DNA from: Alphaproteobacteria bacterium
GTDB lineage: Bacteria > Pseudomonadota > Alphaproteobacteria > UBA828
DNA: 64,000 nt
Assembly (NCBI GenBank): GCA_963667785.2
Contig: CAXXMU010000006.1
Span: forward strand, 832,001-896,000
Reading direction: 5' to 3'
Part shown: piece after piece, positions 15,128 through 51,936 of the stretch
Position numbering within the stretch: position 1 is the stretch's first letter
Layout: the number at the start of each line of letters is the position of its first letter
Notes under the pieces: model-generated
Told to the model about the DNA's origin: nothing
Database searches by the model: none
What the model saw: the letters and a program-made list of their open reading frames with translations, nothing else
Translations under genes and position numbers: made by a program

Positions 15128-15161
15128 TCCACCGTTGCCGGGAACCTGAGCGGGGCCGCGC

Positions 15162-16232
15162 GTGTCCGACGTCGAGCTTTCGGGCCTGACCAAGCGCTAC
15201 GGCGAGACGCTTGCGGTCGCCGACGTCTCGCTCCGGGTCGAGGAGGGGGAGTTCTTCTCCCTCCTCGGCCCGTCCGGCTGCGGCAAGACGACGACGCTGC
15301 GCATGATCGCGGGCTTCGTGCGCCCCAACGAGGGCCAGGTCTTCATCGGCGGCGAGGACATGACCCTGCTGCCGCCGGAGAGGCGGGGCATCGGCATCGT
15401 CTTCCAGAACTACGCGATCTTTCCGCACATGACGGTGTTCGACAACATCGCCTTCGGCCTGAAGATGCGGAAGGTGCCGAAGCGGGAAATCCGCGGCCGC
15501 GTCGGCAAGGCGCTGGAGCAGGTCAACCTCGACGGCTACGAGCGGCGCTACCAGCGCGAGCTCTCCGGCGGCGAGCAGCAGCGCGTGGCGCTCGCCCGCG
15601 TGCTCATCACCGAGCCCAAGATCCTGCTCCTCGACGAGCCGCTCAGCGCGCTCGACAAGAAGCTCCGCGAGGAGATGAAGTACTGGATCAAGGAGCTGCA
15701 GCAGTCGCTCGGCATCACCACCGTCTACGTCACCCACGACCAGGGCGAGGCGCTCACCATGTCCGACCGGATCGCCGTGATGAACCGCGCGCGCGTGGTG
15801 CAGATCGGCGCGCCGGACACGATCTACGAGCATCCGGCCGATCGCTTCGTCACCGACTTCATCGGCGAATCGAACATCCTCGAGGCGCGCGTCGCGGCGG
15901 TGGACGCCGATGTCTGCCGCATCGCGGTGGGCCGCGTCGAGCTCGCCGCGCCCCGGCGCGACGGGATCGAGGCCGGCCAGCCGGTCGGCTTCGTGGTGCG
16001 GCCGGAGCGCGTGCTGATCGGCGCCGCGGCCGAAGCCGCAGGCGGAACCACCGCCACCGCCACCGTGGTCGACCGCAGCTACCAGGGCGCGATCATCCGC
16101 TACCGCATGCGCCTCGAGGGGCAGGAGATCGTCGCCGAGGTGCCCAACCGGCCCGACCAGCCCGACCTCGCCGACGGGGCCGAGACCCTGATCGGCTGGA
16201 CCGTGGCGAGCGGCGAGCTGCTGGTGGATTGA
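15162..16232 (+). CDS. ABC transporter ATP-binding protein, PotA-like
   Basis: GPSGCGKT, LSGGEQQR, LLLDEP, YVTHDQ and a C-terminal TOBE-like region. Confidence 0.93.
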   Translation: MSDVELSGLTKRYGETLAVADVSLRVEEGEFFSLLGPSGCGKTTTLRMIAGFVRPNEGQVFIGGEDMTLLPPERRGIGIVFQNYAIFPHMTVFDNIAFGLKMRKVPKREIRGRVGKALEQVNLDGYERRYQRELSGGEQQRVALARVLITEPKILLLDEPLSALDKKLREEMKYWIKELQQSLGITTVYVTHDQGEALTMSDRIAVMNRARVVQIGAPDTIYEHPADRFVTDFIGESNILEARVAAVDADVCRIAVGRVELAAPRRDGIEAGQPVGFVVRPERVLIGAAAEAAGGTTATATVVDRSYQGAIIRYRMRLEGQEIVAEVPNRPDQPDLADGAETLIGWTVASGELLVD

Positions 16233-42192: not shown

Positions 42193-42531
42193 ATGGACCT
42201 GACGATGGAACGGGAGGACGGCGTGCTGACGGTGCGCGTCGAAGGACGTATCGACGGCTCCACCGTCCTGTCGTTCCAGGAGACCGTCGAATCCGCGATC
42301 AAGGGCGGCGATCGCGCGGTGATCGTGGACTGCGAGGCGTTGAGCTATATCGGCAGTGCGGGGCTTCGCACCGTGCTCGGGCTCGCCAAGACCGTCTCCA
42401 ACCGCAATGTGCGATTTGCGCTCTGCTGCCTCTCGGGTCAGGTCCTGGAGATCTTCGAGAAGAGCGGCTTCGACACGATCATCGCGATCCATCCCTCGCG
42501 GGAGGTCGCGCTCGACTCCGTCGACGGCTGA
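42193..42531 (+). CDS. STAS domain anti-sigma-factor antagonist (RsbV/SpoIIAA-like)
   Basis: GRIDG, phospho-acceptor loop LSYIGSAGLR and IFEKSGF. Confidence 0.88.
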   Translation: MDLTMEREDGVLTVRVEGRIDGSTVLSFQETVESAIKGGDRAVIVDCEALSYIGSAGLRTVLGLAKTVSNRNVRFALCCLSGQVLEIFEKSGFDTIIAIHPSREVALDSVDG

Positions 42532-42564: not shown

Positions 42565-43509
42565 TCAGTCGCGAATCTCCTTCCGCGCCGCGGCGGTAAG
42601 CGCCTGCCCGGCATCCGCCGTGGCCTCGGCCAGCAGCTCGATCCAGAGTTGGCCGTGGGCGGCGACGCGGTGGGTGAGGCCGATCCGCCGCGAGGGCTCG
42701 GGCGCATCGAGACGAGCGAAGCTCAGGCCGGGAGCGGCCGCATACTCGCAGAGCGCGGCCGTCTCTGGAACGAGAGTCAGGCCCTCGCCGCTGGCGATCA
42801 GCCGCGACAGCGTGGCGAGCGAGCTCGCGCCGCGGCGAACTTCCTGCATGCGCCACATGCGGCAGGCGCCCAGCACCTGGTCCGCCAGGCAATGGCCGTC
42901 GGCAAGGGTGAGCAGCGGCCCGATGTCGGCGCGCGCGAGGTCCTCCGGTCTCAGCGCATCGCCGACCGCGCGGCGGATCGAGGCGACGCGTTCGGCGCGG
43001 CCGGCGAGCAGAAAGCGGTCCTCGAACAGCTCTCGCTCCGGCAGCTCCAGCTTGCCCAGCGGGAGCGACACGATTGCCGCGTCGAGGCGGCCGGCGAGAA
43101 GGCGCGAGACGAGCTCCTGACCCGGCGCCTCCAGGATGTCGAGCTCGATGCGGGGCGTCGAAACGCCGACCCGCTCCAGGATTCCCGGCAGAATGTAGGG
43201 CGCGAGCGTGGAGAGGATCCCGACCCCGACCTTGAGCGGACCCGCCTCCAGGCGCTGCTCCATGTTCTCGAGGAGCAGCGTCTCGTCCAGGACGCGCAGC
43301 GTCTGCTCGTGCGCATCCCGGCCGAGCGGGGTGAGGAGGATGCCCCGGCTCTCGCGCTCGACCAGCGGCCCGCCGAGAGTGGCTTCGAGTTCGCGGATCT
43401 GGAGCGAAAGTGCCGGCTGAGAGACGTGCACGCTCTCGGCCGCCCGGCTGAAGGAGCCGTGCTCTACAAGCGCCTGGAAGTAACGCAGCTGTCGCAGGGT
43501 GACAGGCAT
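42565..43509 (-). CDS. oxyR: LysR-family regulator, OxyR-like hydrogen peroxide sensor
   Basis: LysR HTH (LRQLRYF, VSQPALS), TLAPYILP, redox pair GHCLADQVLGAC (C-X8-C) and SSLATL. Confidence 0.8.
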   Translation of the reverse strand: MPVTLRQLRYFQALVEHGSFSRAAESVHVSQPALSLQIRELEATLGGPLVERESRGILLTPLGRDAHEQTLRVLDETLLLENMEQRLEAGPLKVGVGILSTLAPYILPGILERVGVSTPRIELDILEAPGQELVSRLLAGRLDAAIVSLPLGKLELPERELFEDRFLLAGRAERVASIRRAVGDALRPEDLARADIGPLLTLADGHCLADQVLGACRMWRMQEVRRGASSLATLSRLIASGEGLTLVPETAALCEYAAAPGLSFARLDAPEPSRRIGLTHRVAAHGQLWIELLAEATADAGQALTAAARKEIRD

Positions 43510-44313: not shown

Positions 44314-46320
44314 TCAGGCGGCGCTCGCCTCGCCCGCGCTGCCGTCATAGCGCAGCACGATGCAGGTGATGTCGTCCGACTGCTCCGCGTCGCCGACGAA
44401 GTTGACCACCGCACCGGTCACGTTCGCGATCACCGCATCGACCGGCAGGTCGTGGCCGTCGGCGAGAACGGTCTCCAGCCGCGCCTCGGTGAACTCCTCG
44501 TGATCGGTGTTCATGGCCTCGGTGATGCCGTCCGTGTAAAGGAACATCGTGTCTCCCGGAGCCAGCGTCACCGCGTCCTCGTCGTAAGGCAGTCCCGGCA
44601 TGACGCCGACGGCCATGCCTCCCGTCATCGGCAGCGCCGCGACCGCACCGGGATGGCGAACGATGTAAGGCGGGTTGTGCCCGGCATTGGCGTAGGTGAA
44701 CTCTCCGCTCGCGGGATTCAGGATGCCGTAGAAGAGGGTCACGAACAGGTCCTGCGGGTTCTGCGCGCAGATGGCGTCGTTGACCTCCTGGAGGCACGGG
44801 CCCGGCGTGGGGTGGCGGTTGGCGGCGGCACGCATGACGGTCCGCGCGATCGCCATGAAGAACGCGGCCGGCACCCCCTTGCCGGAGACGTCCGCCATCA
44901 CCACGCTCAGGCGTCCGTCGTCCAGGGGGAAGAAGTCGTAGAAATCGCCGCCCATTTCGCGCGCAGGCGTCATGATGGCGTGCCCCGAATATGAGGGACT
45001 TTCCGGCATCGTCTTGGGCAAGATTGCACCCTGAAGGGCGTGCGCGATCTTGAGCTCCGATTCCATACGCTCTTTCGCCTTCTCCAGCTGAGCGTTGGAG
45101 AGTTCCAGGTCGCGCGTGCGGGCGCGCACCATGCTTTCCAGGTATTCCTCGCGCGCCTGAACCTGGCGCACCATGTTCTGGAAAACGCGGACCAGCGTGC
45201 CCAGCTCGTCCCGTCGCTCGGCAACCTGGTCCAGGGATTCCGGGGCGAAGCTCAGCGTGTCGGTGTCCACTTCGGCGGCCGCCGTGGTCAGCGCGGTGAC
45301 GGGCTGCACGATGCGCCGCGCCGAGAACACCGCGATGATGGAGCCGATGGCGAAGGCGGCCGCGGCGACGATCAGACCGTACTTGATGTGGTCCGAGAAC
45401 AGCTGATCCAGGTGGTCGCGCTCCATATGGATGACCGCGGCGCCCGAGGCGACTCCGCCGCGATCGAGGATCGGCGCCGCCACATGGAGGGCCCGCTCGC
45501 CGAGATAGGAGAGCGCGCCGCCCGCAGCGAGAACGCGCGTGGCGAGGTCCGCGTCATCCAGCATGAGCGCCGCATCCGCCATCGGGATATCCTTGGCGTC
45601 GAAGGCGGCGACGCCGATCGTGTCGAGCGAGTCGTTGACCACCCAGATCGACTGAATTGCCTCTCTCCCGGCCAGGGAGTCGAGCGCCGCGTCGATGCCG
45701 ATGACCTCGCCGGCCCCGCCCATCTCGCTGGCGATCGTGCCGACCAGCACCGACTGGTGGTTGCCGGCGCGGACGCCGACGTACCGGATGGGTTTCTCCC
45801 AGCCCGCCGGCGGTATCGACTGGAAGGAAACCGAGAATCGCCGTCCGGAGACCAGCGCCTCCACCGATCGGTAGTCGATGCCGGCCGCGGCGAGGTCCAG
45901 GGCCTCGCCCTGGTCCAGGCCGGCGACGGCGCGCACCAGGGGTTCGCCCGCCCGATCCAGCAGCCAGATGTCGTCGGCAGCGCTGTCCGCGGTGACGCGC
46001 GCAAAGTAGGCCCCGAGCTCGCCCGTGTCCTGCTCCGCGTCATCGTGGCTGTCGAGATGACGGGCGATCGCCAGCGCCTGCGCTTCCATCTGGCTGGTGA
46101 TCATGCGGTCGATCTCGTCGGTGGTGAGCTCGGCCCGGTTGGCCTCGCTCGCGATCAGCCCGGCCACGAGCTGTGCCTGGTCTTCCGCCTGCTCGATCAG
46201 CGCATCGCGCGCGAGATACCCCATCGCCAGCGCGACCCCGATGATCGCCACGCCGACCGACGCGGCGACCGTGATAATCAGTCGTGTGGAAAGGGTCACC
46301 GCAGGCCCGCGGTGGCGCAC
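44314..46320 (-). CDS. Membrane sensor PP2C phosphatase (2 TM + periplasmic domain + HAMP + SpoIIE/RsbU)
   Basis: HAMP ...QPVTALT...RRDELGTL and PP2C motifs GGDFYD, ADVSGKG, NAGHNPP, YTDGITEA and DDIT. The start is GTG 46320 or 46299. Confidence 0.9.
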   Translation of the reverse strand: MRHRGPAVTLSTRLIITVAASVGVAIIGVALAMGYLARDALIEQAEDQAQLVAGLIASEANRAELTTDEIDRMITSQMEAQALAIARHLDSHDDAEQDTGELGAYFARVTADSAADDIWLLDRAGEPLVRAVAGLDQGEALDLAAAGIDYRSVEALVSGRRFSVSFQSIPPAGWEKPIRYVGVRAGNHQSVLVGTIASEMGGAGEVIGIDAALDSLAGREAIQSIWVVNDSLDTIGVAAFDAKDIPMADAALMLDDADLATRVLAAGGALSYLGERALHVAAPILDRGGVASGAAVIHMERDHLDQLFSDHIKYGLIVAAAAFAIGSIIAVFSARRIVQPVTALTTAAAEVDTDTLSFAPESLDQVAERRDELGTLVRVFQNMVRQVQAREEYLESMVRARTRDLELSNAQLEKAKERMESELKIAHALQGAILPKTMPESPSYSGHAIMTPAREMGGDFYDFFPLDDGRLSVVMADVSGKGVPAAFFMAIARTVMRAAANRHPTPGPCLQEVNDAICAQNPQDLFVTLFYGILNPASGEFTYANAGHNPPYIVRHPGAVAALPMTGGMAVGVMPGLPYDEDAVTLAPGDTMFLYTDGITEAMNTDHEEFTEARLETVLADGHDLPVDAVIANVTGAVVNFVGDAEQSDDITCIVLRYDGSAGEASAA

Positions 46321-46351
46321 GACCGATGCCGACGCCGGAGGACCGGCGTCG

Positions 46352-47029
46352 TCATGGCAGCATGTCTCCCGGGCCGTCCGTGGTCTCCTGCATGGGCCGA
46401 TGCACGCGCCGTTTTATGTGCCTGCTCAGCCAATTCATGCCGAACGTGAGCAGCAGGCTGAATCCCAGGAACCAGATCATGGCCCACAGATAGACCCAGA
46501 GCGCGAGCCCGACCTTGTCGACGGCGCCGATGACCGTATCCGCGCGCCGCACGAGTTCGGGCACACCGATCACCGACGCGGTGCTGGAGGCCATGACGAT
46601 GATCAGGAAGTAGCTCGTCCAGGCCGGCACGAACAGCAGCGCCTCGGCGATCTCGTGCCGGCGCAGGTGACGAATCGCGGCGAGCGCGTTGTCGGACACG
46701 TAGCCGGCGACGGCGATCCCCAGCGCGAGCGACGCCTTGATCCAGGCCGGGAAGGTCAGGGCGGCGCCGAAGAGCTCGAACTCGGTGGGGATGATGTAGG
46801 CGAGATAGAACAGCATGACGAAGGTCGGCGCATTGCGCGCCAGCGTCGTCAACGCCCCGCCACCGTGCCGCGCTCCCCAATTCGTGCCGCTCCGCAGCAG
46901 GGCCAGGATCATCCCGACGATGGTGCCGATGGCCATGGCGAGGAGGGAGACGATGATGTTCCAGCCGAACCCCTCCGCCAGATAGGGCGACCAGGCCCAC
47001 AGGACGTCGATGGTCTCCTGCGCTGTCAT
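46352..47029 (-). CDS. Polar amino acid ABC permease (HisM-like) lacking the EAA loop
   Basis: ARNAPTFVML and ASVIGVPEL. The expected EAA segment is shortened to GYVSDNALAAIRHLRRHEIAEALLFVP. Confidence 0.8.
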   Translation of the reverse strand: MTAQETIDVLWAWSPYLAEGFGWNIIVSLLAMAIGTIVGMILALLRSGTNWGARHGGGALTTLARNAPTFVMLFYLAYIIPTEFELFGAALTFPAWIKASLALGIAVAGYVSDNALAAIRHLRRHEIAEALLFVPAWTSYFLIIVMASSTASVIGVPELVRRADTVIGAVDKVGLALWVYLWAMIWFLGFSLLLTFGMNWLSRHIKRRVHRPMQETTDGPGDMLP

Positions 47030-48627
47030 GCCGTCGTGGCCCTGCCCCTCTCGAACCGCCGGAAGAGCTGCACCGTGATGATGACCAGGACGAAGTAGCA
47101 GATCAGAAGCAGATTCATCATCACGTCCGCATTGCCCTTTTCGGCCACGATCGAGGTGCTGGCGTGCACCAGTTCGGGCAGGGCGAGGGTGCTGGCCATG
47201 CCGGTGGCCTTCACGATATTGGCCGAATTCCCCATCACCGCGGCGTAGCAGAGCATCAGCGCCCGTTGAATGTCGCGCGGCGTGAAGCGGAGCCGGTGGC
47301 TGCCTCCGGCGGCGACGTCCGCCGCGAGCGAGAACGCGATGGCGTTGCTCGACGCCGCGTAGAGCGAGAGCACCACGGCGGAGACCAGGAAGGCATCGAG
47401 CGTGAAGCCCAGCGCCAGCAGCACGCCGCCCAGGCCGAAGAACACGATGTAGAGCTGGAGCAGCGGGGGCGTCATGCGCATGAACTCGCTGAAGCCCCGC
47501 AGGAAGTGGCTGATCCCCGGCACCCGCCGGTGCATCAGCCAGCCGAAGAGAATGCCCAGCACGATGCTGCCGACGACGGTGATCACCGAAAGCAGCGCCG
47601 TCAGGCCCAGGCCGTAGAGGAAGACGTCTCTGTCGAGCGGGTCGTAGAGGATGCTGATGTCGAGACCCGTCACCTCCATGATCGTGAGCGAGAAGCCCGA
47701 GAGGCCGCCGATGCCGCTGCCGGTGACGAGAGCGACCTCGCGGCACTCGAGCGGCCACATGCCCTGCTCGTCGCGCCGGCACGTCAGCTCGCCGGCTTCG
47801 TCCGTCTCCTGCCACGTCGTGCGGGCATCGCGCAGGAAGGGAGAGGGCGGCAGGCCCCACTTCTTCTCAAGCGATTGCAGGAAGCCATCGCGATGCCAGC
47901 CGGCAAGCGTATCGCCGAGCACCAGATCCAGTGGGGCGCCGCCTTCCTCCTTGGCGATGGCGACGGCCCAGGGCAGGACGAAACGCGTCGGCAGGGTGAC
48001 GCTGAAGCCGTCCCACTCCCCGCTCTCGAGCTCGTGCAGGAGGAGGACTTCGTCGTAGATCCAGCCGAGGCAATGCCCGTTGCGCAGCGCCTGGCCGGCC
48101 TCGCGGGTGCTGTTGAACGCGGTCACGTCGAGCAGCAGCCGCTGCTTGGCGAGCCGGTTCCAGAGCGAGCCCTGGAGCCCGCACACCGTCTGACCGCGCA
48201 GGTCCGCCCAGCTGCCGATCTTGGCGTCGTCCCGCAGCAGCACGTTGGCGCCGTCGCCGTAATACTGCGGCTCGATCATGGTGACGAGCTCGCGGCGGCT
48301 GCGGGTATCGCCCATGGTGGCGGCGACGATGTCGATCTCGCCCCTCTGCACCTTCTGCAAGCGATTGGCGCTGGTCACCGGAACCAGCTCGACCTCGACG
48401 CCGATCGCCTCCGCGAATCCCCGCGCCACGTCCACGTCGTAGCCGACCAGCTCGCCCTCCTCGTCGCGAAACCCGAAGGGCGAGTAGTCTTCCTTGACGC
48501 CGACGATCACGTGGCCGCGGTCCCGGATTTCCTGCAGCCGGTCGGCGAGGGCGGGAGAGGCAACGCCTGCCCAACCGACGAGGAGTGCGGCGAACAGCAG
48601 GCGCAACGGCAGGCGGCGGCGGCTCAT
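47026..48627 (-). CDS. Fusion of a family-3 amino acid substrate-binding domain and a HisM-like permease lacking the EAA loop
   Basis: Signal peptide, SBP motifs GVKEDYSPFGF, GYDVDVA and VTSANR, and permease motif RMTPPLLQLYIVFFG. ATGA overlap with the next gene. Confidence 0.82.
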   Translation of the reverse strand: MSRRRLPLRLLFAALLVGWAGVASPALADRLQEIRDRGHVIVGVKEDYSPFGFRDEEGELVGYDVDVARGFAEAIGVEVELVPVTSANRLQKVQRGEIDIVAATMGDTRSRRELVTMIEPQYYGDGANVLLRDDAKIGSWADLRGQTVCGLQGSLWNRLAKQRLLLDVTAFNSTREAGQALRNGHCLGWIYDEVLLLHELESGEWDGFSVTLPTRFVLPWAVAIAKEEGGAPLDLVLGDTLAGWHRDGFLQSLEKKWGLPPSPFLRDARTTWQETDEAGELTCRRDEQGMWPLECREVALVTGSGIGGLSGFSLTIMEVTGLDISILYDPLDRDVFLYGLGLTALLSVITVVGSIVLGILFGWLMHRRVPGISHFLRGFSEFMRMTPPLLQLYIVFFGLGGVLLALGFTLDAFLVSAVVLSLYAASSNAIAFSLAADVAAGGSHRLRFTPRDIQRALMLCYAAVMGNSANIVKATGMASTLALPELVHASTSIVAEKGNADVMMNLLLICYFVLVIITVQLFRRFERGRATTA

Positions 48628-49081
48628 GCCGTCACCCGCGGTCCGGGGCCACAGGCCCCGCACATGCGATACGGATGGCGGGGGTGCCGTCGCCGGCAGC
48701 CGTCCATGGGGAAGAAAGACCGGGACGGGATTTCCGCATCACTCCGTTCGCACGACGGAGATATCGAGCGCAGGGGCCCGGCACGGGCGTGCGGCCATGG
48801 CGTTTCGGTCGTCGGTGAGCGTCGAGCGGGTCATCGTAGCGGTTCGGCCTGACGTAACCGATAGGAGGGACAGGTCCGGATAGGGCGCCGATGTCCGCGA
48901 CCGCGAAACGCGTCGGCCGCGTGCTTCTGTCTTATCAGATATAACGTTACGGAGAAATAGAGTATCGTGCCGCGCGAGAGAAACCAGTCCGAACCGTCGC
49001 CGCGCGGGCGCCGACACCTCGAAATGCAGATACGCGCTCGCCGCGGCCTTGGAAGATCGGCGGCGAGGCTCCGGGGGAAGA

Positions 49082-50029
49082 ATGACGGGCCGTGGTGATC
49101 GCTTGCCTTCGTTCGCGCTGCGCCGTCGGGTGCCGCTCCGCCGTGCGCTCGCTCTGCTCGCACTGCTCGCCCTCTCTGCGTCCGGCCTGCCACATCCGGC
49201 ACCACCGGCGGACGCCGCCGATGGCGGCGTGCTTGCCAGGGTCGAGGCGGACGGCGTGATCCGCGCCGGCACGAGGGCGAGCGCGCCGCCTTTCGCTCGG
49301 AAGCTGGAATCCGGCGGGTTCGAGGGCTTCTCGGTCGACCTGCTGGAGGAGATTCGCGTCTCGGTGGAGGAGAGGCTCGGCCGCTCCGTCGCGCTCGAGT
49401 TTGCGGAAGTAACCCCGTCCGACCGGCTGCAGCGCGTCGCCGCAGGCGAGCTCGACATCGTCTGCGGGATCACCACGCCGACCTGGGACAGGGAGACCCT
49501 CGTGGATTTCTCGGTGCCGTTCTTCCGCGACGGCACCCGCATCCTGATCTATCGGGAACGGGCCACCGGCGGCGTGGATCTCGGCAGGCTCGACATCGGC
49601 GTGGTCGAAGGGACGACCACCGTCACGATCATCGGCGACGAGCTGCCGACGGCCACTCTGCACCGGTTTCCCACCATGACCGACGCCATGGAGGCGCTCG
49701 CGAAGTCGGAGGTCCACGGTGTCGCCAACATCGGCATCACCCTGCTCGGGCTCGCGGCGCGGGAGGAGCCCCGCCGCAGCGTGGTCCTGCTTCCGCGCAC
49801 TTACGCGCTTGCCATGGAAACGCTGGCCTGCGTCCTTCCGCAGGACGACAGCGCGTGGCGGGACGTGGTCAATCGCGTCATCATCGATGCCTTCGCGGGC
49901 GTCGAGGATTCCAACAGCCGCTACGACGAGATCTACGAGCGCTGGTTCGGCCGCGACAGCGAGATCTTCTATCCGCTCGACCGCAGCAACCGCACCTATC
50001 TGAGCACCGTGTCGATCTGGGCGCGCTGA
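49082..50029 (+). CDS. Amino acid substrate-binding protein, family 3 (GltI-like)
   Basis: GTRASAPPF, GFSVDL, CGITTPTWDRETLVDFS, GTTT and IYERWFG. Confidence 0.85.
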   Translation: MTGRGDRLPSFALRRRVPLRRALALLALLALSASGLPHPAPPADAADGGVLARVEADGVIRAGTRASAPPFARKLESGGFEGFSVDLLEEIRVSVEERLGRSVALEFAEVTPSDRLQRVAAGELDIVCGITTPTWDRETLVDFSVPFFRDGTRILIYRERATGGVDLGRLDIGVVEGTTTVTIIGDELPTATLHRFPTMTDAMEALAKSEVHGVANIGITLLGLAAREEPRRSVVLLPRTYALAMETLACVLPQDDSAWRDVVNRVIIDAFAGVEDSNSRYDEIYERWFGRDSEIFYPLDRSNRTYLSTVSIWAR

Positions 50030-50173: not shown

Positions 50174-50680
50174 ATGGACCCCCAGCAGGCCACGAAGCCC
50201 GGCTTCCGTAGTGACGGGCACGAGCACGAGAGCTGCATCGAGGATGCGCTCGCCCGCGCCGATGCGCTCTGCCGCGGGCGCGGCGTTCGCCTCACGCCGC
50301 TGCGGCGACGGGTGCTGGAGCTGGTCTGGGGCAGTCATCGCGCGGTCAAGGCCTACGACCTGCTCGCGGCGCTCGGCGAGGGGGTCGGCGCGGCAAAGCC
50401 GCCGACGGTCTACCGCGCGCTGGAGTTCCTGATGGGCCAGGGCCTGGTCCATCGCATCGACAGCCTCAACGCCTTCGTCGGCTGTCCCGCGCCCGACCGG
50501 AGCCACAGCGCCCAGTTTCTCATTTGCGGAAGCTGCGGCGAGGTCTCGGAGCTGAACGCGCCCAGTATCGACCGGGCGGTGGCGCGGCAAGCCGCCGATT
50601 CGGGCTTCGCGGTCTCGCGCCAGGTCATCGAGTTGCACGGAAAATGTCCGCGTTGCACAGCGCCGCCGCCGAGCCCGTGA
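50174..50680 (+). CDS. zur: Zinc uptake regulator (Fur family)
   Basis: RLTPLRRRVL, AYDLL, PPTVYRALEFL, HRIDSLNAF and CxxC...CxxC. Lies upstream of znuC/B. Confidence 0.9.
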   Translation: MDPQQATKPGFRSDGHEHESCIEDALARADALCRGRGVRLTPLRRRVLELVWGSHRAVKAYDLLAALGEGVGAAKPPTVYRALEFLMGQGLVHRIDSLNAFVGCPAPDRSHSAQFLICGSCGEVSELNAPSIDRAVARQAADSGFAVSRQVIELHGKCPRCTAPPPSP

Positions 50681-51936
50681 CCCGCCGCGCCGGCGCCGAC
50701 GGCGCGACGCTCGCCTCGGGCGAGGGCCTCGTCGTGCGCTACGGCGGGCGCACGGTGCTGGACCATGTCTCGCTCGAGGTCCGCCGGCGCGAGGTGGTGA
50801 GCCTGATCGGGCCGAACGGCGCCGGCAAGACCACCGCCGTGCGCGCGCTGCTGGGACTCATCAGGCCGGATGCGGGCACCGTCCGTCACGAGCCGGGCCT
50901 GGTGGTGGGCTACGTCCCCCAACGCATTGCGCCGGATACGCTCCTGCCGATCTCCGTGCGGCGCTTCCTGGCGATGGCGGGTCGCAGCACCGCGGCGGAC
51001 GCCGCCGCGACCCTCGACGAGGTGGGTATGGCGGCGGTGATCGACCGCCAGCTCAGCGCCCTGTCCGGCGGCGAGTACAGGCGGGTCTTGCTCGCCCGCG
51101 CCCTGCTGCGCGATCCCGACCTCCTGGTGCTGGACGAGCCGGTCCAGCAGGTAGACTTCCCCGGCCAGCTCGGCTGCTTCATGGTCTGGCGGCGCATGGC
51201 CTACTTCGGAGACTCCGTCGCCCACAGCGCGCTGCTCGGCGTGGTGCTCGGCATCGTCCTCGGCATCGAGCCCAACGCCGGCATCATCATCATGTGCATC
51301 GCCCTCGCCCTGCTGCTCCACCTGCTGCAGCAGCAGCGGCGCCTGGCCACGGATACCCTGCTCGGAATCCTGGCGCACGGGGCGCTGGCCCTCGGACTCG
51401 TCGGCATCAGCTTCCTCGAGGGCGTGCGGGTCGACCTGATGAGCTATCTGTTCGGCGACATCCTCGCCGTCACCGGCCGCGACCTGCTGTGGATCTGGGG
51501 CGGCGGTGGCGCCGTGCTGGTGGCGACGGCGCTGATCTGGCGGCCGCTGCTCGCCATCACGGTCCACGAGGAGCTGGCGCGCGCCGAGGGCGTGCGGGTC
51601 GGCCTCGTGCGCCTTGTCTTCACGCTTCTGATCGCGCTCGCGGTCGCGATCGCCATGAAGATCATCGGCCTGATCCTGATCGTGGCGCTCCTGATCATCC
51701 CGGCGGCGACGGCCCGCAGACTCGCGCGCTCGCCCGAGCAGATGGCGCTGCTCGCGAGCCTGATCGGGGCGGCGGCGGTGGCGGGTGGGCTGCATGCCTC
51801 GCTCGCCTGGGACACGCCGTCCGGCCCCTCGATCGTGGTCGCGGCGCTGGCTCTCTTCACGCTCGGTCTGGGCGGCGCCGCGCTGGCCTCGGCGTGTCTC
51901 GGGCGGGTCGTTGATTCGGCGCGGGCCGAGCCCTAG
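50677..51936 (+). CDS. In-frame ZnuC'-'ZnuB fusion (truncated Zn ABC ATPase joined to truncated permease)
   Basis: GPNGAGKT, LSGGE and LVLDEP...VDFPGQL run directly into the ZnuB motif LGCFMVWRRMAYFGD. The ZnuC H-loop and ZnuB TM1 are missing. Confidence 0.8.
   Translation: MTRRAGADGATLASGEGLVVRYGGRTVLDHVSLEVRRREVVSLIGPNGAGKTTAVRALLGLIRPDAGTVRHEPGLVVGYVPQRIAPDTLLPISVRRFLAMAGRSTAADAAATLDEVGMAAVIDRQLSALSGGEYRRVLLARALLRDPDLLVLDEPVQQVDFPGQLGCFMVWRRMAYFGDSVAHSALLGVVLGIVLGIEPNAGIIIMCIALALLLHLLQQQRRLATDTLLGILAHGALALGLVGISFLEGVRVDLMSYLFGDILAVTGRDLLWIWGGGGAVLVATALIWRPLLAITVHEELARAEGVRVGLVRLVFTLLIALAVAIAMKIIGLILIVALLIIPAATARRLARSPEQMALLASLIGAAAVAGGLHASLAWDTPSGPSIVVAALALFTLGLGGAALASACLGRVVDSARAEP

Follow-up and report, generated by a model that had tools for sequence, protein, structure and literature searches.

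Comparative analysis of ATPase-less ABC permeases linked to a membrane PP2C phosphatase suggests an undescribed kind of bacterial nutrient receptor

We analyzed a cluster of four genes at positions 44314-50029 of a 64,000-nucleotide stretch of DNA (hereafter, the window) from an alphaproteobacterium of the UBA828 lineage (GenBank assembly GCA_963667785.2, contig CAXXMU010000006.1, positions 832,001-896,000). The cluster encodes two membrane proteins related to the permeases of polar amino acid transport (PAAT) type ABC importers, one of which is fused to a substrate-binding protein (SBP), together with a membrane-bound SpoIIE/PP2C phosphatase and a second, free SBP. Comparative analysis of homologous loci establishes, at the level of sequence, the ancestry of the permeases, the loss of both the ATPase and its docking loop, purifying selection on the remaining membrane domains, and the linkage of the permease pair, up to in-frame fusion, to components of partner-switching pathways. 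In our judgment the cluster probably encodes a receptor that was derived from a type I ABC importer of the PAAT group and feeds a partner switch. A transporter-derived receptor acting on a STAS partner switch, the reading put forward in the initial annotation of the sequence, appears well supported by these comparisons. It would be a type of nutrient receptor not so far described in bacteria.

Organization of the gene cluster

The window has a G+C content of approximately 70%. The initial annotation, made from the nucleotide sequence alone, described a minus-strand run of an SBP-permease fusion, a permease and a phosphatase, with a divergent SBP gene. This layout and its coordinates were reproduced by our open reading frame (ORF) and Pfam analysis, and all peptide strings quoted in that annotation, including the HisM signatures of both permeases, were found in the sequence. 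The features of the cluster and of the adjacent region are as follows.

44314-46320, minus strand: SpoIIE/PP2C membrane phosphatase, 668 aa (Pfam SpoIIE 182.1 bits, HAMP 24.8 bits)
46352-47029, minus strand: second permease, 'perm2', 225 aa (TIGR01726 match, predicted PAAT-type fold)
46625-46705, minus strand: truncated EAA loop of perm2, residues 109-135 (gaps relative to ArtQ and to EAA-retaining sister permeases)
47026-48663, minus strand: SBP_bac_3-permease fusion, 545 aa (signal peptide, SBP_bac_3 domain, PAAT-type membrane domain)
47272-47352, minus strand: degenerate former EAA loop of the fusion, residues 438-464 (alignment to 4yms_D)
49049-50029, plus strand: free SBP ('SBPdiv'), divergent (signal peptide; Pfam SBP_bac_3 74.2 bits)
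42193-42531, plus strand: STAS-domain protein of the anti-sigma-factor-antagonist type (Pfam STAS 82.6 bits)
42565-43509, minus strand: LysR gene, located between the STAS gene and the phosphatase gene

The ATG of perm2 overlaps the TGA of the fusion gene (ATGA). The gap between perm2 and the phosphatase gene is 31 nt with the GTG at 46320 as start codon, or 52 nt if the next GTG is the start.

Permease ancestry and loss of the EAA loop

Both permeases are of the ArtQ/HisM (PAAT) type as judged from NCBIfam and PDB profile comparisons and, for perm2, from the predicted fold. Against TIGR01726 (HEQRo_perm_3TM, the NCBIfam signature of the N-terminal three transmembrane (TM) helices of PAAT permeases; cutoff 42.2 bits), perm2 scores 43.7 bits, above the cutoff, and the fusion 40.3 bits on residues 347-438, just below it. 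Neither permease matches Pfam BPD_transp_1 (PF00528) even at E<=10. In the PDB, the family profiles match only ArtQ chain 4yms_D (E=4e-8 for perm2 and E=5.2e-7 for the fusion). An AlphaFold2 model of perm2 (80-row alignment, pLDDT 77.8) had 4yms_D and 4yms_C (E=4.9e-6 and 2.1e-5, respectively; TMq 0.65) as its top Foldseek matches, followed by MetI. In the fusion, the SBP_bac_3 domain occupies approximately 47854-48510 and the membrane domain 47029-47706; the fold of the latter was judged by sequence profile only.

The EAA loop (EAA-x3-G-x9-I-x-LP) is the docking site for the ATPase in the permeases of ABC importers. The initial annotation held that this motif had been lost from both cluster permeases, together with a visible shortening of the loop. 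Our alignments confirm that both loops are shortened or degenerate; the loss is incomplete in perm2, which retains an 'EAL' remnant. Compared with ArtQ 4yms_D, the perm2 profile has a 20-residue gap straight after this remnant, and the gap relative to the nearest EAA-retaining relatives is 18 residues. The fusion profile has a gap of about 10 residues in the former EAA loop, where no EA[AL] match was found and the family consensus holds no conserved residue.

As to the coupling helix, 18-20 residues are deleted in perm2, and the model still shows a short remnant: the E-A-L residues (129-131) lie within a helix of just five residues (127-131) between TM3 (95-123) and TM4 (133-154). The remaining loop is basic and belongs to the most conserved stretches of perm2, with V111, S112, D113, F133, P135, W137 and T138 invariant or nearly so in this region.

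Absence of a cognate ATPase

Homologous loci were collected by a scan of one genome per species, which yielded 111 loci. The best 80 were kept with up to 10 kb of flanking sequence each, many of them on contigs of metagenome-assembled genomes (MAGs). For a control, 401 genomes of the phylum were searched with the closest loop-retaining relative, and the best 12 loci (L096-L107) were used as sister operons.

The sister operons are the closest relatives of both permeases, reaching about 190 bits at best against the perm2 profile, and share with the family motifs such as MASSTAS-VGV and the order of the SBP and two transmembrane domain (TMD) genes. They differ in having a separate SBP gene, an ATPase gene and EAA loops, whereas the family has an SBP-TMD fusion and lacks these loops. 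The arrangement SBP-TMD-TMD-ATPase was found in 12/12 sister loci; in 11 of these the ATPase gene immediately follows the perm2-like gene, and in the twelfth it is located upstream in divergent orientation. Compared with one another, the sister ATPases score 284-599 bits. The sisters carry canonical EAA loops, for example QWEAAESLAFSRRQTLWRIILPQ; a regular expression for the motif matched both membrane domains in eight of the 12 loci, one domain in three, and neither in L103. Since the ATPase gene of the sister operons follows the perm2-like gene, the signaling gene found at this position in the derived family holds the place of the lost PAAT ATPase gene.

Homologs with a cognate ATPase were looked for among the 80 family loci and none was found. 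In 50 of these loci there is no ABC ATPase-like ORF at all within 10 kb on either side. The search with the ATPase of a sister operon returned 34 ATPase-like ORFs in the 80 loci, none of the sister type; the best match (232.9 bits) is the ATPase of another, complete PAAT operon located 5 kb from the cluster in L024, and the rest score no more than 143 bits. Several candidates were rejected individually. The ATPase located 26 bp after the phosphatase gene in L058 is a protein with two nucleotide-binding domains followed by a BPD_transp_2 permease, and belongs to another system. The one between the free SBP gene and an SBP_bac_8 gene in L036 has just 125.9 bits to the sister ATPase. In L002-L010, synteny indicates that an ATPase gene at about 2.1 kb takes the place of the ZnuC-like gene of the window.

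In the window itself, a Pfam search of the cluster ORFs and 39 other ORFs agrees with the initial annotation in finding no polar amino acid ATPase gene; the only ABC ATPases are a PotA-like protein with a TOBE_2 domain (15150-16229) and a ZnuC-like protein near 50.7 kb. The two Pot permeases at 12-14 kb, which that annotation had set against the cluster permeases, both carry LEEAARSLGA and match BPD_transp_1 with 48.7 and 52.1 bits. The genome from which the window derives has a single PAAT-type ATPase (AapP-like, C6:740873-741709). It lies in a complete operon with SBP_bac_3, two BPD_transp_1 permeases and ABC_tran, and an orphan PAAT ATPase in this genome was therefore rejected. The next two best ATPases of the genome are of the Opp/Dpp type, each in an operon of its own. 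It is unlikely but possible that a PAAT ATPase gene was missed in this assembly (14 contigs, 98% completeness).

Conserved neighborhood and fusions to signaling proteins

Neighborhood maps were built with hidden Markov models (HMMs) made from the window's own domains and iterated over the loci and the genome. The SBP-TMD gene lies directly upstream of perm2 in all 80 loci. Its two parts form one ORF in 78 of them, and the other two contain frame breaks. A phosphatase with a homologous sensor domain is encoded next downstream of the permease pair in 66 of the 70 loci that have more than 3.5 kb of downstream flank. The linkage to PP2C genes on which the initial annotation relied is thus conserved, and it is accompanied by in-frame permease fusions to a phosphatase, an RsbW-like kinase and a STAS protein.

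Perm2 and the phosphatase form a single ORF in 11/80 loci, encoding proteins of 855 aa (for example P0234) that carry the TM-sensor-HAMP-PP2C part C-terminally to perm2. The linker is short and leads from the cytoplasmic end of the last perm2 helix to the first TM helix of the phosphatase, so that the fusion fits the topology of both partners. In six loci perm2 is joined in one ORF to an RsbW-like HATPase_c_2 domain, and the two are adjacent in three more; in another homolog (P0248) it is joined to STAS and cNMP_binding domains. Perm2 is thus found in fusion with three kinds of partner-switch component. A FastTree phylogeny of perm2 groups the RsbW-adjacent loci in a single clade (support 0.97) and places the phosphatase fusions within one clade of 13.

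The four exception loci hold other membrane proteins in the phosphatase slot, namely a methyl-accepting chemotaxis protein (MCP) in L037 and MscS-type channels in the other three. The permease pair is retained also in loci that lack both the phosphatase and the free SBP. In L042 (10641-13640), L053 (10593-13652) and L065 (10634-13666), which represent two Azospirillum and one uncultured Rhodospirillaceae, Peripla_BP_6-MscS channels of about 1000 aa replace the phosphatase after perm2, and these loci are also without the free SBP.

Of the 80 loci, 50 have a STAS gene no more than 10 kb away and 37 an RsbW-like gene, and at least one of the two occurs in 54. In the close relatives L003-L010, the STAS gene is at the same relative position as in the window, and its product (42193-42531) is a candidate substrate of the phosphatase.

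The genes around the cluster differ by lineage, and no common output could be named. In one Rhodospirillales group, genes for Amt, a STAS protein and a type III glutamine synthetase precede the cluster (L017:2466-6437, and by HMM map L018, L020, L029 and L034); this context hints at a nitrogen-related output of the partner switch. In Accumulibacter and Competibacter loci (L049:14311-20629, L044:14348-16177), the phosphatase gene is followed by genes for GlcNAc-2-epimerase-like, STAS, GlgX-like isoamylase, STAS, RsbW-like and HD-domain proteins. The GlgX-like context is glycogen-related, and these are glycogen-cycling organisms.

Distribution of the family and selective constraint

A search of approximately 5.8 billion proteins with perm2 yielded 313 relatives at E<=1e-5, and no precomputed Pfam domain is present in 119 of the best 120 of them. 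With the perm2 profile, 1.84 billion cluster representatives gave 56 matches at E<=1e-30, 260 at E<=1e-10 and 1351 at E<=1e-3. Judged by these searches, the perm2 family is small and distinct. As labelled, the 80 loci comprise 53 from alphaproteobacteria, 17 from Competibacteraceae, six from Accumulibacter, and four with other labels that may be binning errors. Taking Competibacteraceae and Accumulibacter to be Gamma- and Betaproteobacteria, respectively, the permease genes retain 50-60% identity over three proteobacterial classes. Cultured carriers include Kaistia, Aquamicrobium zhengzhouense, Zavarzinia aquatilis, Oryzicola mucosus and Azospirillum; of these, Kaistia soli, A. zhengzhouense, Z. 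aquatilis and O. mucosus have the form with the phosphatase.

We calculated dN/dS ratios by the Nei-Gojobori method against close relatives, using nine comparisons (eight for the free SBP), with the following ranges.

Fusion membrane domain: 0.053-0.143
Perm2: 0.073-0.135
PP2C domain of the phosphatase: 0.100-0.154
Fused SBP: 0.116-0.177
Free SBP: 0.129-0.195
Sensor domain of the phosphatase: 0.232-0.275

Of all the genes in the cluster, the permeases show the strongest constraint, and they are under strong purifying selection. Relaxed selection, which would have been at odds with the functional role proposed in the initial annotation, was looked for and did not appear, the permease values being as low as or below those of the PP2C catalytic domain.

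In a perm2 tree of 81 family and 12 sister sequences, the family forms one clade apart from the sisters. The support of the respective node is only 0.52, so the main basis for a single origin of the family is the deletion that its members have in common. Within the Competibacteraceae clade (0.935), the six Accumulibacter copies group together (0.998), which suggests transfer between unrelated bacteria that share the wastewater habitat.

Binding proteins and the phosphatase sensor domain

Both SBPs score well above the cutoff of Pfam SBP_bac_3 (PF00497, 26.4 bits), the fused protein with 93.0 bits and the free one with 74.2, and the best PDB relatives of both are amino acid binders (AncQR, AncCDT-1 and the substrate-binding domain (SBD) of GlnP). 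The free SBP scores 125.5 bits against TIGR04262 (GrrP orphan SBP), below the cutoff of 190. The two proteins differ at one of two putative ligand-anchoring positions. By comparison with GlnBP and HisJ, we take an aligned Arg and an aligned Asp to be the anchors of the alpha-carboxylate and alpha-amino groups of the ligand. Both are invariant in the fused SBP (80/80). In the free SBP the Arg is retained in 72/72 sequences and the Asp position is occupied by Ile or Val, so that its ligand is probably something other than an alpha-amino acid, or a protein.

The occurrence of the free SBP follows that of the phosphatase. Among 66 loci with two-sided flank, both are present in 63, neither in three, and no locus is discordant. 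The free SBP gene is divergently upstream in most alphaproteobacterial loci; in those of Competibacteraceae and Accumulibacter, its place is between the perm2 and phosphatase genes.

The phosphatase consists of TM1, a periplasmic domain (approximately 45421-46215), TM2, a HAMP domain (45157-45324), a coiled coil and a SpoIIE/PP2C domain (44347-44922); the SpoIIE match (PF07228) covers model positions 1-191 of 192. No Pfam dCache match was obtained for the periplasmic domain. An AlphaFold2 model of residues 1-330 (pLDDT 85.7) shows two alpha/beta modules between two long helices, and its top Foldseek matches are TlpQ, PctD, KinD, Tlp3 and LuxQ (3c30), with probability 1.0 but TM-scores of only 0.3-0.4. 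Thus the periplasmic domain is predicted from the model to be of the double-PDC, dCache-like type. In a search of approximately 5.8 billion proteins, the homologs of this domain carry SpoIIE in 116 of 120 cases among the matches listed, the other four being short. By profile comparison (probability 0.2), the domain shows no relation to the MCP of L037 or to a 568-aa protein of L040, the latter matching no Pfam family.

The best NCBIfam match of the phosphatase is SiaA (NF038263). With 110.8 bits against a cutoff of 700, confined to the HAMP-PP2C part, the phosphatase is not a member of the SiaA family.

Proposed mechanism and alternative explanations

We propose that an ancestral SBP-TMD-TMD-ATPase operon would have lost its ATPase gene, that the SBP would have become fused to the first membrane domain, and that the EAA loops of both membrane domains would have degenerated. 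In the present-day system, the tethered SBP, loaded with an amino-acid-like ligand, would dock on the membrane-domain heterodimer, and the resulting conformational change would go to partner-switching enzymes at the complex instead of to pumping. These enzymes would be the downstream dCache-HAMP-PP2C phosphatase and, in some lineages, an RsbW-like kinase, which together or singly would set the phosphorylation state of one or more STAS proteins. The free SBP would probably provide a second input, acting on the dCache-like domain of the phosphatase as LuxP acts on LuxQ. Ligand binding, the loss of transport, the direction of signaling, control of the phosphatase, and the STAS target with its output are steps that we infer from the comparative evidence.

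Several observations weigh against this proposal. The five-residue helix of the perm2 model would make docking of a cytoplasmic partner, even an ATPase, structurally possible. The dCache-like domain and the co-occurring free SBP could do all the sensing. An MscS-type channel, as found in three loci, is not a classical signaling output, and fusion of a transporter to a signaling protein is no proof of lost transport; genuine transporters also occur fused to kinases, Amt-kinase proteins being an example. In the window, the STAS gene is 1.8 kb off, on the opposite strand and behind the LysR gene. The window contains no RsbW-like gene, and the three such genes of the genome lie on other contigs. 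The comparison also draws on 80 of 111 loci with flanks of up to 10 kb, many from MAG contigs. A prediction of the complex between the fusion TMD, perm2 and phosphatase residues 1-330 gave a score of 0.00 (mark 0.32) and was uninformative either way.

The most serious competitor is a pair that moves its substrate without ATP, as an SBP-dependent facilitator or channel, with the partner protein (phosphatase, MCP or MscS) either reading occupancy or flux, as with the 'trigger transporter' DctA-DcuS, or being simply co-regulated for the same ligand. The constraint on the membrane domains and on the ligand-anchoring residues would fit a translocation path as well as a receptor, the MscS-type channels hint at solute flux, and fusions of real transporters to kinases exist. 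However, several lineages have the module fused to partner-switch proteins (phosphatase, kinase or STAS), and signaling genes hold the slot of the lost ATPase in 66/70 loci. Nor are we aware of any type I ABC importer whose membrane domain can transport when its ATPase is missing, and on balance we regard such a facilitator as rather unlikely. It is less likely still that sensing belongs to the dCache-like domain and the free SBP, with the permease pair serving only as a membrane scaffold, localisation factor or stabiliser for the phosphatase, kinase or STAS proteins. The perfect co-occurrence of free SBP and phosphatase speaks for this arrangement, as does the classical ligand-binding fold predicted for the sensor domain, which has LuxQ, a binder of the SBP LuxP, among its fold matches. 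A scaffold would nevertheless have no need of a tethered SBP with invariant anchors in 80/80 loci. Moreover, the permease pair persists where the phosphatase and the free SBP are absent, and the MCP and the L040 protein share no detectable sensor domain with the phosphatase that they replace.

An ordinary importer powered in trans, for example by the AapP-like ATPase of the genome, would be in line with the presence of one PAAT-type ATPase gene, with the 'EAL' remnant and short helix of perm2, and with the sharing of ATPases between importers that occurs in other families. We consider it very improbable, given the deletion of 18-20 residues of the docking loop in perm2, the shortened and unconserved loop of the fusion, and the lack of a BPD_transp_1 match in either permease. 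In addition, no ATPase of the cognate type was found in the 80 loci, compared with 12/12 sister operons, and the sole PAAT ATPase of the genome serves a complete operon of its own. Decay of the permease genes into functionless relics, to which the joint loss of motif and ATPase might point, is the only alternative that is excluded outright, by ORFs intact in 78/80 loci, by dN/dS values of 0.05-0.14 that are the lowest in the cluster, and by the identity level of 50-60% maintained across three classes.

Returning to the receptor, a bolder form of the proposal may be considered, which we regard as possible although somewhat doubtful. The cluster permeases could represent a portable, motor-less ABC receptor module, in which the TMD heterodimer, rid of its ATPase, uses its cytoplasmic face to hold partner-switch enzymes (PP2C phosphatase, GHKL-type RsbW kinase or STAS protein). 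Inward and outward transitions driven by the SBP would directly gate a kinase/phosphatase pair, and the same module could be connected to a chemoreceptor or to a channel of the MscS type. If this is true, prokaryotes would possess a second, independent transceptor class, with representatives in Alpha-, Beta- and Gammaproteobacteria.

Relation to known systems and implications

A full-text literature search, with subscription journals mostly outside its coverage, returned no paper describing ATPase-less ABC permeases linked to PP2C or STAS. The known importers nearest to the cluster are the PAAT systems Art(QN)2 (4YMS), HisQMP2 and GlnPQ, which have the membrane fold and the N-terminal three-helix signature in common with the cluster permeases. 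In GlnP (6H30, 4LA9, 4KPT), the SBD is tethered to the N-terminus of the permease, as is the SBP_bac_3 domain of the cluster. In contrast to these importers, which have an ATPase gene and EAA loops, the cluster has no ATPase gene and the loop is deleted or degenerate in both subunits.

The membrane domains of type I ABC importers are thought to work only with an ATPase. If the cluster does encode a receptor, the alternating-access machinery of an ABC importer would be re-usable as a transmembrane signaling device. It would also provide a defined extracellular input, probably an amino acid, for proteobacterial partner-switching pathways, the inputs of which are mostly unknown.

On the output side, phosphatases of the RsbU/SiaA type (SiaABCD, chlamydial RsbU) likewise combine a periplasmic sensor, HAMP and a PP2C domain, and they act on STAS-type proteins, as proposed for the cluster phosphatase. 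Unlike the cluster phosphatase, none of these systems was found described with ABC permeases in the literature searched. LuxP-LuxQ and TorT-TorS are SBP-dependent membrane sensors, and their combination of a free SBP with a double-PDC sensor resembles the strictly co-occurring free SBP and phosphatase here, which may act together in a similar way. Their output is a kinase, whereas that of the cluster is a PP2C phosphatase accompanied by an ever-present SBP-TMD/TMD module. In BceAB-BceS, VraFG-GraS, DctA-DcuS and PstSCAB-PhoU-PhoR, a transporter is the input device of a signaling protein in the same membrane. Those co-sensing transporters retain their motor and transport activity and act through a two-component kinase; the cluster, by contrast, has lost the motor, and its proposed output is a partner switch of the PP2C/RsbW/STAS type.

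The closest conceptual precedent comes from sensor kinases with the energy-coupling factor (ECF) S-component/5TMR fold, which are described in PMC11109136 as the first prokaryotic 'transceptors'; fusions of the same fold to MCP and SpoIIE domains are also reported there. As proposed for our cluster, these receptors re-use the membrane fold of an ABC-type transporter (PMC11109136). The fold in that case is of the type III/ECF S-component kind and not a type I importer TMD heterodimer, and the receptors have no SBP, are mainly fused to histidine kinases and were found by structure rather than by operon decay (PMC11109136). If our proposal is correct, the cluster would stand beside the ECF S-component case (PMC11109136) as a second class of prokaryotic transceptor.

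The natural fusions are ready-made constructs for structural work, and the cultured carriers make the hypothesis testable at the bench. The current names of these proteins, 'ABC transporter permease subunit' and 'hypothetical protein', mislead transport inventories.

Additional observations

Distant relatives of perm2 occur in other domain contexts. Three proteins of about 650 aa (P0337, P0341 and P0393) have a distant perm2-like N-terminal domain (approximately 100 bits) followed by an NMT1_3 (TAXI/NMT1-type) binding domain, and may represent another family of permease-SBP fusions. A 492-aa protein (P0246) combines a perm2 homolog with the C-terminal portion of an NhaA Na+/H+ antiporter; as the contig is very short (1.9 kb), this may be a chimera or a gene-calling artefact.

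Next to the cluster, at 50524-51936 on the plus strand, the ZnuC-like ABC ATPase is in frame with a ZnuB-like ABC-3 permease in a single 470-aa ORF. The ZnuC-like part stops just past the Walker B motif and D-loop, and the H-loop region is absent and continued in no frame. This ORF could reflect a real fusion or deletion, or else an assembly artefact.

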